DNA of 64,000 nucleotides, taken from the NCBI RefSeq assembly GCF_003019035.1, contig NZ_CP027447.1, one strand, 5' to 3'. Positions 5,761 to 35,080 of this stretch are shown here, one piece after another. A program made the translations under genes and the position numbers. Source of the DNA: Escherichia coli. GTDB taxonomy: Bacteria > Pseudomonadota > Gammaproteobacteria > Enterobacterales > Enterobacteriaceae. The notes under the pieces were generated by a model. It worked only from the letters and a program-made list of their open reading frames with translations, did not search any database and was not told the DNA's origin. Every line of letters begins with the position of its first letter. Within the stretch, counting starts at the first letter, position 1.

Positions 5761-6654
5761 TCAGCATTTCTGCACAGTATTTAACAACTTCTCTAAATTC
5801 TGATACATCGCGCGATTAATATCGCTGTTCTGCCAGCCTTCCACATTAAAAGTTAATTGCCAGCTACCATTGCACTGGTTGCGCAGAACAATATCACTTT
5901 CCAGTCGGTTACGAACATATTTATAATAAGTTGTCATTGTCATATTATGCGCTGACAATAAATTATCGAGTTTGTCTTTTCCTGGTTCGAGGGTTTGTGA
6001 CAGTAACGGTACGGAATTATTTTCCTTTCCAGAACTAAGATGAAATATTTTTATTCTTGGACTGTTAATTGACTCTTTTACCAGTTGCGGGGCGTCAGGT
6101 GTACTTTTCAAGTGTGAATACCCCACGGTCGAGCCAATAAATATAACAGCCGCGGTCAACGCTAACCCCATCAGTCCTTTATGTTTTTTTCTAACTGGTA
6201 CAGGCGGTGTTGTCGAAGATATCTCTTCTGACACAGTTTCCTGTACCTGGTCGGTAATCATCAGCTTTTCCGCAGGCGATAACTCCGGCAAAGACACATA
6301 CTCTTTATTGCACAAGTAACCTTTCTTCGGAATTGTTTTAATAATGTTCTGTTGTTTGCCATCATCGTCGATAGCAACGCGTAACGCATGGATCGCCGTC
6401 GGCAGGCTGTTACCGCCGACTATGCGGTTCTTCCATACTTCGGCACATAAATAAGATCGCGATAAAACCACATCGGCATTTTTTGCTAATGTTTCCAGCA
6501 AAATAAAATGGTATTCGCCGAGACGACGTGTTTCACCCGTTTCGCAATGTATTAAGGCATTAAGCGACGGGTCCATCCGCCAGTTGTTGATAATAATACT
6601 CATAGTTGAGTTTACCTTAGCAAGGGATAAATGTTTCCTGATAGTGCTTTGCAT
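5761..6654 (-). CDS. lafZ: Transmembrane transcriptional regulator (ToxR/CadC-like winged-helix N-domain plus one TM helix), LafZ position
   Basis: 297-aa ORF; OmpR/PhoB-type winged-helix-like N-terminus; hydrophobic segment LMGLALTAAVIFIGSTVGY mid-protein; AT-rich gene. Confidence 0.55.
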   Translation of the reverse strand: MQSTIRKHLSLAKVNSTMSIIINNWRMDPSLNALIHCETGETRRLGEYHFILLETLAKNADVVLSRSYLCAEVWKNRIVGGNSLPTAIHALRVAIDDDGKQQNIIKTIPKKGYLCNKEYVSLPELSPAEKLMITDQVQETVSEEISSTTPPVPVRKKHKGLMGLALTAAVIFIGSTVGYSHLKSTPDAPQLVKESINSPRIKIFHLSSGKENNSVPLLSQTLEPGKDKLDNLLSAHNMTMTTYYKYVRNRLESDIVLRNQCNGSWQLTFNVEGWQNSDINRAMYQNLEKLLNTVQKC

Positions 6655-7089
6655 AAAGCACAGTCTTATACGTCCCTGAGAAGATGATTTTTCTGCGTGA
6701 TAATTAATATTTTATGGTAATAGGATTATTCTTAATCACTATATGGCGTGGAAATGTAACGAAATGACAGGACAGGTACAATAGCCAAATGTGTACTATT
6801 TGCAACGCAATGTAAATTTTGGCATCAGTACATTGAGAACAAAACGCGATAATTGATGACAATCTTAACTATATCAAGCATTTGATAAAGACATATTTTG
6901 ATACCTGGCCATGTGGCAGATATTGCTAATAATCTTTTTATCTGAATTTAAACTCTGCTTTTTTTTAGCTAAAAGTGGCATCGGATAATACGTGGCGAAA
7001 AAATTTTAACGGCGATTTTAAGTTTGCTCCTGAGGTGTCGTTTTTACAGGGTATCGAAACGAAAACGATTAATCCCAAGGAGCAGTATC

Positions 7090-11806: not shown

Positions 11807-12526
11807 ATGCTACAGGACGTATTATTCGAGTCAGAAGAATTTGCTGCCGCGCCGGTATTAACCCCGCAGCAGGAGAGCCACTACTTGCAGGCCTATTTAC
11901 CACTGGTGCGTAAAGTGGTGCGGCAACTTGCCCCGCAGTGTAATTGCATTATTGATCGTCAGGATATGGAACAAACGGCGTTAATGGGGCTGCTTAATGC
12001 CATTCGCCGCTACGGGCTGCCGGACGAAGGTTTTGCGGGCTATGCCGTGCACCGTATTCGCGGCGCGATCCTGGATGAGCTGCGCGCTCTCGACTGGCGA
12101 CCGCGCCAGCTGCGACAGAAATATCATCAGATGAAAGACCTGATTCGCGAAACGCGTAAAAAACTGGGGCACGAACCGGAGTGGCAGGAGCTGGCTGAGG
12201 AAGGGATCTCGCATGAAGATTATCTCGAATATCAGCAACTGGAAGGGGCGGAAACGCTCGCCAGCCTGGACGAACTGCTGAACGGCGAAGGGCCAGGCAT
12301 TCCGCTTGCTGGCAGAGACCTGGAAGATCAGTTTGTCACGCAGAAAATGCTGCAACACGCGCTTTCACAATTAAGCGAAAAAGAGCAACTGATCCTCTCC
12401 ATGTATTACCAGCATGAGATGAATCTCAAAGAGATTGCGCTGGTATTAGGGCTAACCGAGGCCCGAATTTGTCAACTGAATAAACAGATCGCGCAGAAAA
12501 TTCGTGATTTTGTCTATCCGAATTAA
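11807..12526 (+). CDS. lafS: Flagellar sigma factor, sigma-28 (FliA-like)
   Basis: 239-aa ORF; sigma-70 family regions 2 and 4 recognisable; C-terminal HTH ...LKEIALVLGLTEARICQLNKQ. Confidence 0.85.
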   Translation: MLQDVLFESEEFAAAPVLTPQQESHYLQAYLPLVRKVVRQLAPQCNCIIDRQDMEQTALMGLLNAIRRYGLPDEGFAGYAVHRIRGAILDELRALDWRPRQLRQKYHQMKDLIRETRKKLGHEPEWQELAEEGISHEDYLEYQQLEGAETLASLDELLNGEGPGIPLAGRDLEDQFVTQKMLQHALSQLSEKEQLILSMYYQHEMNLKEIALVLGLTEARICQLNKQIAQKIRDFVYPN

Positions 12527-26557: not shown

Positions 26558-26633
26558 GCCGATATAGCTCAGTTGGTAGAGCAGCGCATTCGTAATGCGA
26601 AGGTCGTAGGTTCGACTCCTATTATCGGCACCA
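26558..26633 (+). tRNA. thrW: tRNA-Thr (CGT anticodon)
   Basis: 76-nt sequence GCCGATATAGCTCAGTTGGTAGAGCAGCGCATTCGTAATGCGAAGGTCGTAGGTTCGACTCCTATTATCGGCACCA with cloverleaf pairing and CCA end; downstream of proA. Confidence 0.9.
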
Positions 26634-29257: not shown

Positions 29258-29784
29258 TTGCGTAATTCCGATAACTCGTTGAAGCGTTCCATAAACATCC
29301 CGTAGGCATGGCCCGGTGCCAGTGGAATAACTTTGAACATCTCTGTTGCCGGGATACCTTCCAGTACAGGCCATAAAGAGCCATCATCAAGCCCGAGATC
29401 ACGGCGTTCGGTTGCCAGCATAATGAGATCGGCATATTTCACTGGCGTGCTCATAACAGGAGGTAACCCGTATTTCTCACGGATTACTGCATCTATTTTT
29501 TCTTCCATCCGTTTATAGTCAGGAAGAAGGCGTTTCAGTGGTGCGGGGATGTCCTGGCAATACGCTTCTGTTGCATCATGCATTAACGCTTCAAAAGCAA
29601 ATTCCTGCGGCACCAGCTGGCTGCAAAGCACCGCATGTTGGGCGACACTGTAGAAGTGAGAAAGATGACCGGCAAAGCGGCAGATATTTGAAAGGGAAAC
29701 CGCGATATCGTTAATCACGATGTCGTCTTTATTTATCTTGTCATAATAAAAATGCTTCCCGGAAAAAGTTTTAATAAATGACAT
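29248..29784 (-). CDS. HD-domain phosphohydrolase (YfdR-like 5'-deoxynucleotidase)
   Basis: ORF-track 29248..29811; ATG at 29784 with GGAGAA RBS gives 178 aa; HD motif region (...LMHDATEAY...). Confidence 0.65.
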   Translation of the reverse strand: MSFIKTFSGKHFYYDKINKDDIVINDIAVSLSNICRFAGHLSHFYSVAQHAVLCSQLVPQEFAFEALMHDATEAYCQDIPAPLKRLLPDYKRMEEKIDAVIREKYGLPPVMSTPVKYADLIMLATERRDLGLDDGSLWPVLEGIPATEMFKVIPLAPGHAYGMFMERFNELSELRKCA

Positions 29785-29911
29785 TTTGTTCTCCACGTAT
29801 ATGCGCTGCACCGCGCTGAATTCTGGTAAAAAGAATCCCTCACCATCCGGCGATTATTGAGTAAATTACGTTTCCATAAATGCCCCCGCAGGGGCATTTG
29901 CAGTAATGAAA

Positions 29912-30736
29912 TCAGGCGGTGAAAGTACCAATAAAGGTTTCTACTTTGCTGTCCTTGAATTTCTCAACAAGCAGATCACGAAATTCGTTAGCCATTTCTT
30001 CCTGCACCGCCTCCAGCTGAATAATGCGCAGAACCAGTACAGGACGATCTCCAGTGATAATACTGAGGCGTAATTTAAACGGACGTTCTTTCAGACCTTC
30101 AAACGGAACGCATTTAAATTCAAATGCCACTGGCATAATGTCTTTGGTCTTCGCTTCGACAGACTCCATCAGGGAGCGTTTGCCGCTGAAGTCATTATCT
30201 TCAAAATCAGCGGTCTGGTTTGCTTCAATCGTGATTTTACGGACAGCCGCAGCCGCTTTTGTTGCCTGAATAGCGTCACCATTAGCATCAAAGCCCACAA
30301 GATAGTCGGCCCAGTCTTCAATCCATTCTGCCAGTGACTTCTGGGAGTTACGCTCGCCGTTAACAGACAACAGAGCAGAGAACGGTGCTGTCTTTTTCAG
30401 TTTGAGTGTGGCGGTGTTATCTGCGTGACCTGGTTCATCAATAGTACCCAGGTTAAGCACACTGACGGCACGCATATTATCAGCATCGATAAAGCAGCGG
30501 GTGCCTTCATCTGCAAGATCTTTAGAATAACGGGTAAAGTCATCGATGCTGGCAGTGGAAAGCGCACCACGGAAACGGAAGCGATTTAAATTAAATTTTT
30601 CCAGATCATGAATGCGGAAATTCTCAGGCAATGCCACAGCATCGGCACCAATCTTACTGATAATTTCATTAACACCCTGAGCAGAAATAAGGGCATGGAT
30701 TTGATTAATTGCGGTTGCGTCTAAGTTCTGAGACAT
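29912..30736 (-). CDS. YfdQ-like prophage protein (DUF2303-like)
   Basis: 274-aa ORF; same size and neighbourhood as CPS-53 yfdQ (recalled). Confidence 0.5.
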
Positions 30737-30801: not shown

Positions 30802-31164
30802 TTAACGACCTGCTGCGCGGAGTTTTCCGTCAGGTTCACCGGCAAGAGTCAGTAACTGTCCCTGGTCTTCCTGCAGAATAGTCAGGCGACCACCGCGATT
30901 GACATACATCGGCGTTTCGGTGGTGTCTTCTTCGGAAATTTTCCCGCGGTTAGTCGGGCGAACATATGAGAGTTTGTGTTTGATTTTCACACGGTTCTCA
31001 TCAAATGGTTCGATTTCCAGGTTGAGTGAGACCTTACCTTTGGTTTTCGTGTTCATCACACCGGAAGCGACTTCACTGAGAACTGCGCCGATTTTGGTTT
31101 CAAATACGCCGCCGTCCAGCTCCCCGATAAATGCCTGCACATCAGTACTGCGTTCGCTAGCCAT
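30802..31164 (-). CDS. Hypothetical prophage protein (YfdP position)
   Basis: ORF-track 30802..31482; ATG at 31164 (MASERSTDV...) preceded by GAGGAG RBS gives 120 aa. Confidence 0.45.
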   Translation of the reverse strand: MASERSTDVQAFIGELDGGVFETKIGAVLSEVASGVMNTKTKGKVSLNLEIEPFDENRVKIKHKLSYVRPTNRGKISEEDTTETPMYVNRGGRLTILQEDQGQLLTLAGEPDGKLRAAGR

Positions 31165-31601
31165 TTTGCTGCTCCTCATCATATCGACCCTGCAAGGCCG
31201 ATTAGTTTCTCCACAAAACAGAGAAGAACACCTGCGGTGGCAGCCGCCCGGATGGATTGGGTTATGAGCCCGTCGTCCGGTGATGCTCTTCTCTGTTTTG
31301 TAAAAAGGACGGTACCAGCCGGAAGCAAGGGTACAAGCTGGTACCGCCAGGACTACACACAGCATAAAGTTGTGGTGCCGGGTGCCTCCCGGTGCCTGGC
31401 GAAGGTTGCACACCAGGCGGGTGGGTATCCACAGAAGGTCGACTGTCAGCCTCAACCTTAACCCGCGTGCGCTGAGCCGCATTCACCACAACGCTAAGGA
31501 TTCTCTCTGGTTGAAAATACTTAGCTGTTATGTGCCTGTCTTTTCACCACTTCAGGCTCGGTGGTATCCTTTTAAGCCCGTATACATAAAAGGAAAATCA
31601 A

Positions 31602-31847
31602 ATGACTTTTGATGAAAAAGAACTTGATAATGCAATTAATAAAATCATCGTAACGTCGCTCTTTTCCTGTCTCAGCGACACTCAGCAGAAACAGTTCTAC
31701 GAATCGGCTTTCAACATGATCGAGCGTTGTTGTTTCTGCGATGCCGACGAGTTACCTGAAAAAATCAGGAAACAGTTGGCTGATGCTCTTCGAGTGCGAC
31801 TTTCTGACCAATTTTCTGAAATGTGCTCTCCGAATTTGGACAAATAG
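31602..31847 (+). CDS. Hypothetical protein
   Basis: 81-aa ORF with AAAGGA RBS; overlaps the 3' end of convergent ORF 31765..32061. Confidence 0.35.
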   Translation: MTFDEKELDNAINKIIVTSLFSCLSDTQQKQFYESAFNMIERCCFCDADELPEKIRKQLADALRVRLSDQFSEMCSPNLDK

Positions 31848-34149: not shown

Positions 34150-35080
34150 ATTAACCGGCTATGTATGGGATGGTTGCGCTGCGTCAGGCATGAAGTTATC
34201 CAGCGTGGCAATTATGGCCCGCCTGGCTGATTTCAGTAATGACGAAGGTGTGTGCTGGCCATCAATTGAAACCATTGCCCGCCAGATTGGCGCGGGGATG
34301 AGCACCGTCAGAACGGCTATCGCACGGCTGGAAGCAGAAGGCTGGTTAACGCGTAAGGCGCGTCGCCAGGGTAACCGCAATGCGTCGAATGTTTATCAGC
34401 TTAACGTTGCGAAGCTTCAGGCAGCGGCATTTTCTCAACTGTCAGATTCTGACCCGTCAAAATCTGACGCATCAAAATCTGACCAGTCAAAATTTGATGC
34501 GTCGAAATCTGGCAAAAAAGCGGGTTTTCACCCGTCAGAATCTGGCGGGGATCCGTCAGTAAAATCAAAACATGATCCGTCAGATAAAAAACCTTCTCGT
34601 CCGGACGCTTCGCAACCGGACACGCAGACGGATGAACAGGATTTTTTAACTCGCCATCCTGATGCGGTTGTATTCAGCCCTAAAAAGCGCCAGTGGGGAA
34701 CGCAGGATGATTTGACCTGCGCACAGTGGCTCTGGAAAAAAATCATCGCCCTGTACGAGCAGGCCGCCGAGTGTGACGGCGAGGTGGTTCGTCCCAAAGA
34801 ACCTAACTGGACAGCCTGGGCAAACGAAATTCGCCTGATGTGTGTGCAGGATGGTCGTACTCACAAACAAATCTGCGAGATGTATAGCCGCGTCAGCCGC
34901 GATCCGTTCTGGTGCCGTAACGTGCTCAGCCCGTCGAAGCTGCGGGAAAAATGGGATGAGCTTTCCCTGCGCTTATCGCCGTCCGTCAGCACGTACACCG
35001 AAAAACGCGAAGACCCGTACTTCAAAGCCAGTTACGACAATGTGGACTACAGCCAGATCCCGGCAGGATTCAGGGGGTGA
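34139..35080 (+). CDS. Replication initiation protein (O-like; N-terminal HTH, central iteron-encoded linker)
   Basis: 313-aa ORF; N-terminal HTH-like region (GMSTVRTAIARLEAEGWLTRK); central SKSD/PSESG repeats encoded by DNA iterons. Confidence 0.65.
   Translation: MSTKLTGYVWDGCAASGMKLSSVAIMARLADFSNDEGVCWPSIETIARQIGAGMSTVRTAIARLEAEGWLTRKARRQGNRNASNVYQLNVAKLQAAAFSQLSDSDPSKSDASKSDQSKFDASKSGKKAGFHPSESGGDPSVKSKHDPSDKKPSRPDASQPDTQTDEQDFLTRHPDAVVFSPKKRQWGTQDDLTCAQWLWKKIIALYEQAAECDGEVVRPKEPNWTAWANEIRLMCVQDGRTHKQICEMYSRVSRDPFWCRNVLSPSKLREKWDELSLRLSPSVSTYTEKREDPYFKASYDNVDYSQIPAGFRG
34441..34590. repeat. Origin-like iterons inside the O-like gene
   Basis: At least five tandem ~15-bp repeats (cGTCAaAATCTGac) from 34441 to 34513, with further degenerate copies at 34531-34590. 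Confidence 0.6.

Follow-up and report, generated by a model that had tools for sequence, protein, structure and literature searches.

A predicted pseudoknotted RNA of the STnc100/PasD family in the early-left operon of an SfV-like Escherichia coli prophage

What occupies the roughly 435 bp that lie between the immunity region and the yfdP gene of a lambdoid prophage in Escherichia coli? The stretch of DNA analysed here, 64,000 nucleotides in all and called the window throughout, carries an SfV-like prophage: positions 31100-31700 are 99.5% identical to Shigella phage SfV, in which the counterpart of this gap is found between orf32 (the yfdP homologue) and orf33, 3' of cI. The original prediction had described the gap as a structured non-coding region of the leftward early transcript and had offered a small RNA, a nut-like antitermination site, or a processing or terminator structure as possible explanations. 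The features on which our analysis rests are collected in Table 1. The placement of the gap on the pL transcript is a reasonable reading in view of the gene order, the near-consensus promoter and the operator-like palindromes just past the cI terminator, and this part of the original prediction agrees with our analysis. The palindromes (ATGTACC...ATACAT) resemble the ATGTAC-N7-GTACAT operator of the cI-cro spacer, and the promoter is probably the source of the transcripts crossing the gap. The limits of the gap, given before as 31165-31600, are right at the yfdP end, where the start codon follows directly, and move to 31601 at the other. The ymfI-like and orf33/ymfJ-like frames on that side are convergent and overlap by 83 bp; at least part of one of them may be spurious.

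Table 1. Coordinates of the features in and around the gap, in positions of the window
Feature	Coordinates	Strand	Remarks
cI	32908-32234	minus	
cI terminator	32222-32203	minus	
pL-like promoter	32194-32167	minus	TTGACA-16-CATAAT with overlapping operator-like palindromes; 11 of 12 consensus matches; directly 3' of the cI terminator
orf33/ymfJ-like	32061-31765	minus	98 aa; first pL gene; no Pfam match
ymfI-like ORF	31602-31847	plus	81 aa; no Pfam match
Non-coding gap	31601-31165	minus	strand given is that of the RNA
Upstream hairpin	31565-31546 (with tail to 31527)	minus	ACCACC-GAGCCUGAAG-UGGU(G), then conserved tail AAAAGACAGGCACAUAAC
Outer helix P0	31540-31527 / 31362-31350	minus	5' strand GACAGGCACAUAAC with the linker; predicted in the MFE structure of the 435-nt region
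5' hairpin	31525-31493	minus	GCUAAGUAUUUUCAACCAGAGAGAAUCCUUAGC; -10.4 kcal/mol; hairpins of other sequence at the same place in relatives
STnc100/PasD-like core	31492-31369	minus	Rfam match, R1, covariation
P1	31492-31484 / 31377-31369	minus	
P2	31481-31464	minus	bulged-A hairpin
Pseudoknot	31459-31453 / 31408-31402	minus	AAGGUUG with CAACCUU (P4 loop)
P4	31418-31394	minus	
P5	31392-31378	minus	CCGGG-AGGCA-CCCGG
Single-stranded linker	31368-31349	minus	UUUAUGCUGUGUGUAGUCCU; 3' strand of P0; candidate seed
Intrinsic terminator	31348-31300	minus	12-bp stem GGCGGUACCAGC/GCUGGUACCGUC, 17-nt loop, then CUUUUUAC; -22.2 kcal/mol
yfdP leader hairpin	31301-31213	minus	89 nt; 25-bp lower stem, branched top; -45.5 kcal/mol
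Hexaloop hairpin	31214-31183	minus	GUGGAGAAAC and a 7-bp hairpin, hexaloop UUGCAG; just before the yfdP RBS
yfdP	31164-30802	minus	ATG 31164-31162; RBS GAGGAG 31177-31172; yfdQ next

According to RefSeq the answer would be a protein, since ymfH (103 aa) is annotated in e14 and a "hypothetical protein" is placed over the core elsewhere. The frame is open for 75 aa in the window and for 103 aa in e14, whereas in the other homologues it spans 19, 11, 13, 13, 59 (L091), 13, 19, 27 and 19 aa and, in the SJ46 copy, runs without a stop within the stretch examined; only 11-27 aa are thus open in eight of the ten homologues besides the window and e14. In one record examined PGAP itself flags the frame as "frameshifted", none of the ORFs of the gap has a Pfam match, and the substitutions follow base pairing and not codons. 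The original prediction that the gap holds no convincing ORF is borne out: frames of 49-80 aa are present, without Pfam matches, and the ymfH frame is not conserved. That a YmfH-like protein is really encoded here appears extremely improbable. Among 5426 complete E. coli genomes, 1830 carry the core at a coverage of at least 80%, K-12 (within e14) and O157:H7 being among them, and it is also found in Shigella serotype-converting phages; its listing as a protein gene (ymfH or hypothetical protein) instead of an RNA is a spurious annotation concerning the third or so of E. coli genomes that carry it. In K-12, ymfH overlies an RNA copy (L002, 3190-3319, corresponding to 31365-31495 of the window) which has two lesions in P5, where the loop A is deleted and a pair of the stem is disrupted by a G-to-A change, and which is consistent with decay in a defective prophage.

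An RNA, on the contrary, is supported by the folding of the gap, one of the checks that had been proposed. The minus strand of the 435-nt region reaches -180.8 kcal/mol, against -142.8 +/- 5.6 kcal/mol for shuffled sequences (z = -6.77, none of 100 being as good), while the plus strand gives z = -3.14. Our own covariance model of the core, R1, finds the window core as its sole match in the 64 kb (86.3 bits), on the minus strand only, and this result together with the asymmetric z-scores identifies the minus strand as the RNA strand. A structured RNA of about 190-240 nt is thus encoded on the minus strand of the gap, and the following 120 nt form a separate structured yfdP leader. Both inverted repeats of the original prediction lie where they had been placed and extend further than described. 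The first (31213-31228 / 31286-31301, with a 57-nt spacer) has arms of up to 25 nt that are 84% complementary (31213-31237 / 31277-31301); the second, ggtaccagc/gctggtacc (31311-31319 / 31337-31345), reaches 10 nt exact and, on the minus strand, 12 bp including G-U pairs (31348-31337 / 31319-31308). Their treatment as a single feature has to be abandoned, the two being separate modules. The suggested terminator structure applies to the second repeat, which is followed on the minus strand by CUUUUUAC and belongs to the RNA; the first is the leader hairpin of yfdP. A third exact inverted repeat, of 9 nt and absent from the original prediction, is the closing helix P1 of the core. The direct repeats of ccggtgcct are correct in position and inexact in sequence (CCGGGTGCCT at 31378-87 against CCCGGTGCCT at 31388-97, 90% identical); this imperfect repeat is the reverse complement of the invariant core of the family, AGGCACCGGG-AGGCACCCGG, that is, of the end of P4 and the P5 hairpin.

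The identity of the RNA was obtained from an Rfam scan by E-value, in which 31522-31299 on the minus strand matches STnc100 (RF02076) over the whole model (1-206 of 206) with 42.4 bits and an E-value of 9.7e-7. The alignment is significant and full-length; the score stays below the curated gathering score of 47 bits, for which reason a standard Rfam scan reports nothing in the gap. None of the 12 loci of this kind that were tested reaches 47 bits, whereas all canonical copies tested score 78-208 bits. On the evidence of sequence comparison, the core is a divergent member, termed here type B, of the STnc100/PasD family of enterobacterial prophage RNAs. Relatives were collected from viral contigs by the 20-nt core CCGGGAGGCACCCGGCACCA, common exactly to 119 distinct phage copies that fall into 43 clusters at 85% identity; the loci compared are designated by L-numbers (L001 is SfV, L002 is e14 and L130 is mEp460). 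A search of the literature with the core sequence returned a primer for STnc100 as the sole match. A 2026 preprint connects STnc100, itself an established family of sRNAs from prophages, with the PasD sRNAs of EPEC, of which PasD1/2 are validated by Northern blot, depend on Hfq for their stability and have RIL-seq targets; in addition eleven STnc100 copies are reported as transcribed in EDL933, one of them as confirmed by Northern blot, and EcOnc27/sRNA103 binds Hfq. The suggestion of a small RNA in the original prediction is right as to the kind of molecule, the core being related to these prophage sRNAs.

The window RNA shares with STnc100, PasD and EcOnc27 the closing helix UGGUG/CACCA, the GAAU junction, a similar length, a 3' terminator and the pseudoknot described below. 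As in these relatives, P2 is a bulged-A hairpin whose position is unchanged and whose pairing survives swaps from CCCC/GGGG to GCGG/CGC, and P4 adjoins the invariant P5. The sequence of P2 and the junction is different (GAAUGCGGCU here, GAAUCCCCCU in STnc100); type B has no promoter of its own and belongs to the cI-controlled early-left operon, unlike the Q, stx, esterase or lysis regions that harbour STnc100; and the window RNA has extra conserved modules, namely the upstream hairpin, P0 and the downstream leader hairpins. A second, weak match to STnc100 at 29741-29920 (E-value 0.59, with the same site in mEp460) proved to be only a terminator-like hairpin and no homologue. This hairpin, AAAUGCCCCUGCGGGGGCAUUU-AUGG at 29870-29910 on the minus strand, is situated between yfdQ and yfdR and hints at another site of termination within the early-left operon.

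The covariance search in relatives, also proposed before, disclosed compensatory changes in P1, P2, P4, P5 and the pseudoknot among some 65 phage copies that are distinct from one another. With 40 representatives, RNAalifold returned P1, P2 and P5, with CG to GC and CG to UA swaps in P2 between the types. After realignment of 60 copies with R1, 92.3% of the cells are paired, compared with 80.0% in shuffles and 40-49% in slid controls, and fifteen pairs of this alignment (15-17 over the alignments used) show double-sided changes; these figures and those given below for the pseudoknot are indicative and are not to be read as probabilities, because the alignments were themselves made to fit the models and consist of related sequences. 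P4 is supported by covariation, all seven of its pairs covarying, whereas its shuffle z-scores as an anchored hairpin are weak (mean -1.4). Analysing the strand just 3' of P2 it is possible to see that in nearly all copies it can pair with the loop of P4, through many different sequences: GAACUGGCA/UGCCAGUUC, AGACUGACA/UGUCAGUCU, UGGUUAU/AUAACCA and CCAGUC/GACUGG are found elsewhere in place of the pairing of the window. When the P4 loops were taken from the R1 alignment, and hence independently of this pairing, the longest helix had a mean of 6.5 nt against 4.3 nt in shuffles; 25 of 47 copies gave p < 0.05, with a Fisher p of 4e-19 over 39 distinct helices, and in a second model, with the pseudoknot replacing P4, seven of seven pairs had double-sided changes. 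The pseudoknot was found neither in the Rfam consensus line nor in the publications on STnc100/PasD examined for it. The invariance of P5 is more than an artefact of the search, since copies gathered by the independent 5' motif GTGGTGAATGCGGC keep the near-invariant core of P5 and the P1 3' strand, the sole stem changes being compensatory (CCUGG/CCAGG). The comparison supports the view that P1, P2, P4, P5 and the pseudoknot are held by compensatory changes across E. coli, Salmonella, Cronobacter and P1-like phages. A second copy of the P1 3' strand, GGCAC(A)CAAC at 31527-31536 on the minus strand, lies 5' of the P1 5' strand with a hairpin between them, likewise in L013, L127, L140, L152 and L160; it may interfere with the formation of P1, or may derive from a former tandem copy on the 5' side. 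In L152, L163 and L149 a P5-like hairpin is present at the place of this duplicate.

The core is flanked on both sides by further elements. The stem of the upstream hairpin covaries, with CCACC/GUGG in phiES15-type copies and CUAC/GUAG in L024. P0 encloses the 5' hairpin and the core, and analogous outer helices flank P1 in L028, L144, L141, L007, L127 and L013; we propose P0 on the basis of the MFE structure and these recurrent patterns, the z-scores of a duplex search being non-significant with so long an upstream segment. Part of the linker, GCUGUGUGUAGUC, is shared by the type B copies of E. coli, Salmonella and Cronobacter despite their differing terminators. The terminator of the window has the G+C-rich stem and the following U run of a Rho-independent terminator, and was missed by a simple scan on account of its 17-nt loop. 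Terminators of unrelated sequence occupy the same place in all type B lineages, Salmonella, Cronobacter and uncultured copies among them, except the P1-like phage SJ46, where the core stands without a terminator 30 nt before the start of tciA. In the leader hairpin one compensatory change is seen, GAGAAG/CUUCUC becoming GAAAAG/CUUUUC in Salmonella copies. This 89-nt hairpin is also found 5' of yfdP in Stx phages and mEp460, and L024 has an equivalent leader hairpin of unrelated sequence; the long and the hexaloop hairpins recur with covarying stems in L013 and L024. The element made of GUGGAGAAAC and a hairpin with the hexaloop U(U/G)GCA(G/A) occurs in 25 of the 44 type B/C copies that are distinct, with stems covarying as CGGCC/GGUCG, GGCGG/CCGCC and GGGUUA/UAACCC. 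The original observation was real and is largely explained as a diverged branch, so far without annotation, of an established family of prophage RNAs, together with a terminator and a structured gene leader.

The two types differ in their setting. Type A (GGUGAAUCCCCCU...) is the canonical STnc100, and many of its copies have a sigma-70 promoter, TTGAC(A/T/C)-17/18-(-10), ending 6-7 nt before P1. Type A belongs to the late region: the copy of 933W is in mid-operon, between stx2B and a gene for a SASA-family (nanS-p-type) esterase, and other copies are between a PF03589 Q gene and the holin/endolysin genes; ARAGORN found no tRNA genes 3' of type A copies. Tandem arrays of type A were observed in L044 (1335-1935, three copies in 600 nt) and L012 (1591-2665), and L007 has three tandem type A copies, one of them weak, with a fourth, type B-like copy about 5 kb off (6149-6749 and 12009-12152), adjoining three tRNA genes and sok, DicF and IS009 matches. 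Type B (GGUGAAUGCGGCU...) comprises the window, SfV, SfII, SfIV, e14, ST64B, 118970_sal3, phiES15, the P1-like SJ46/RCS47 and several uncultured contigs, and in SfV, ST64B, 118970_sal3, phiES15, L013 and L029/L114 it is directly 3' of a cI-like repressor gene and co-oriented with it. A third and more diverged variant is found at the same site in mEp460 (L130, 2758-2899), with P1, a P2 of GCGC/GCGC and an expanded P5 loop (R1 28.8 bits, E-value 6e-8); the terminator and the yfdP leader that come after it are those of the window, with a mosaic junction at the terminator, and many Stx2c phages carry a similarly diverged variant according to partial BLAST matches.

Concerning the function of the RNA, we give about even chances to a terminator-ended structured RNA that is released from pL transcripts and acts in trans, with its terminator also gating the genes from yfdP to int. 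A scan of the minus strand over 31500-31765 for a promoter of the RNA itself gave very weak candidates only, none of which passes. As the RNA has no recognisable promoter of its own, it would be synthesised solely once pL is freed from the cI-type repressor, upon induction or infection. The polymerase would then transcribe orf33 and the RNA and would largely stop at the terminator, with ends at 31300-31305, so that the released transcript would have the structured RNA as its stable, terminator-ended 3' part, which would make it a 3'-end-derived sRNA. If it behaves like PasD1/2, the STnc100 copies and EcOnc27, which have been studied experimentally, it would bind Hfq and act in trans, and the terminator would be the first barrier, tL1-like, limiting transcription into yfdP-yfdQ-...-xis-int. 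Early termination in a phage operon yielding a short RNA is known from the lambda tL1/12S early-left transcript and from StxS. The anatomy of the present locus suggests the same logic, a promoter-proximal terminator that would both yield a short stable RNA and gate the downstream genes; unlike those cases, the terminated RNA here carries a large conserved fold. In K-12, the region of the intE-xisE-ymfH promoter of e14 showed an active start site under a single condition, gentamicin, and there in one replicate of the two. Near the O157 copy (at about 0.3 Mb) the list in the main text of the EDL933 study has no novel ncRNA, as would be expected if pL were repressed. Against a terminated trans-acting RNA count the lack of its own promoter, the late-region location of the canonical members and the score below the gathering threshold. 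Furthermore, a terminator-defined sRNA is not universal in the family, given the SJ46 core; the pseudoknotted fold and the invariant 20-nt core are unusual for an sRNA pairing through a seed with the help of Hfq and point to a specific macromolecular partner; and the position at the head of a long operon with further terminator-like hairpins, in phages without N, would also suit a cis-acting element.

Such an element could be a leader that modifies the polymerase, by put-like or other RNA-mediated antitermination or attenuation, the core binding RNA polymerase or a phage or host factor and allowing read-through to xis-int. We consider this unlikely, though it is an alternative to be taken seriously. 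Type B is promoterless and, in no fewer than six phage lineages whose flanking genes differ, stands first in the early operon read leftward, many type A copies follow a PF03589 Q antiterminator gene and precede a holin gene with their promoter immediately before P1, a Pfam search revealed no N-like protein, and the SJ46 copy is a 5' UTR without terminator; the complex fold with its invariant nucleotides, and the upstream duplicate of the P1 3' strand as a source of a competing structure, would fit as well. The put RNA of HK022, of about 70 nt and with two stem-loops (PMC9378689), is similarly a structured RNA encoded in cis shortly 3' of an early promoter, before the terminators, of a lambdoid phage without N. 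It exists, however, as two copies, putL and putR, whereas the prophage has a single copy of our RNA, with none in the rightward operon by R1, and there is no likeness in sequence or structure: homology to put was discarded after an R1 search of the HK022 immunity/early region, where the best match was 4.9 bits (E-value 1.2, filters off). The relatives accumulate as terminated, Hfq-bound sRNAs, the 933W type A copy is in mid-operon 3' of stx2B, and inspection by eye of three lineages disclosed no conserved pairing of the core with the terminator from which an antiterminator could arise. A riboswitch-type antiterminator appears doubtful: in the window CCUGGCG at the base of the terminator is able to pair with the 3' arm of P4, and by eye an equivalent pairing is not kept in L013 or L024. 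The nut-like site of the original prediction also has to be given up: in place of a boxA like CGCUCUUA the window has AAUCCUUAGCG, without boxB, no N-like protein was found, and orf33, the first pL protein, has no Pfam match and is neither basic nor arginine-rich. A boxA candidate, a UGCUCUUU-like motif 4-6 nt 5' of P1 in several relatives, was dismissed as a helix strand, being complementary to GAGAGCAUU just 3' of P1 in the outer helix; in relatives UGCUCUUU pairs with GAGAGCA 3' of P1 as P0, and in other copies it is the 3' arm of an upstream hairpin.

A structured RNA could also work by binding a specific protein or ligand and not by base pairing, and would then be made from whatever transcript hosts it; sponges or decoys, RNAs directed against defence systems, sensors in the manner of a riboswitch and mimics of tRNA topology would be examples. 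The fold is indeed the only trait common to all contexts (own promoter, operon-internal position with terminator, 5' UTR and tandem arrays), and the core of P5 and the P1 3' strand is almost invariant under sampling by the independent motif, in a pseudoknotted RNA. This reading is nonetheless doubtful to us: it has no known partner, the downstream genes have no common metabolic theme, and the relatives have mRNA partners in RIL-seq. We also put forward, as a speculation about as unlikely as the cis leader itself, that the STnc100/PasD fold may be no ordinary sRNA pairing through a seed and may instead be a pseudoknotted RNA of tRNA-like topology which binds RNA polymerase or a host or phage protein; type B, at the head of the pL operon, would then be a new class, unrelated to put, that controls early termination in lambdoid phages without N. 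Finally, the RNA may have no function of its own, the gap holding a terminator and processing hairpins beside an STnc100-like core left as an inert relic of mosaic recombination. The lesions of the e14 copy in the otherwise invariant P5 and the mosaic junctions of Stx phages at the terminator would agree with a relic, whereas four helices and the pseudoknot are preserved by compensation across such distant carriers, mEp460 keeps a diverged yet foldable variant at the same site, and in 1436 of 1847 matching E. coli records the best match reaches 99% identity or more with the window core; inertness is in our opinion very improbable.

To the STnc100/PasD prophage sRNA family, already known, the present study adds a context in the early operon, the pseudoknot, and the correction of a protein annotation that is widespread. 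The early-left operon of phages of the SfV/e14/ST64B type is linked to this family, which gains a well-supported pseudoknot within a conserved architecture of about 125 nt and is seen to occur in three transcriptional contexts. Two questions become testable, namely which partner binds the invariant core and how lambdoid phages without N pass the first early-left terminator. If the tRNA-like topology were true, an RNA controlling early termination would be present in about a third of E. coli genomes, hidden under the ymfH annotation.

Some minor observations were made elsewhere in the window and its relatives. In SfV (L001, 6052-6240, corresponding to about 34150-34340 of the window) matches to isrK and to a C4 antisense RNA, the P1/P7-type immunity RNA, are found to the right of cro/cII, and likewise in ST64B; the window shows no isrK/C4 match there at the gathering threshold and so differs from SfV in that part. 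A near-perfect 60-nt palindrome at 34455-34514 contains repeated GACGCATCAAAATCTGA-like units and may be an iteron or origin-type repeat; a mir-5880 match at this place is a chance match to the palindrome. At the gathering threshold Rfam matches the 64 kb in one place only, a tRNA gene at 26558-26630 on the plus strand, which is presumably the attachment site of the prophage beside int.
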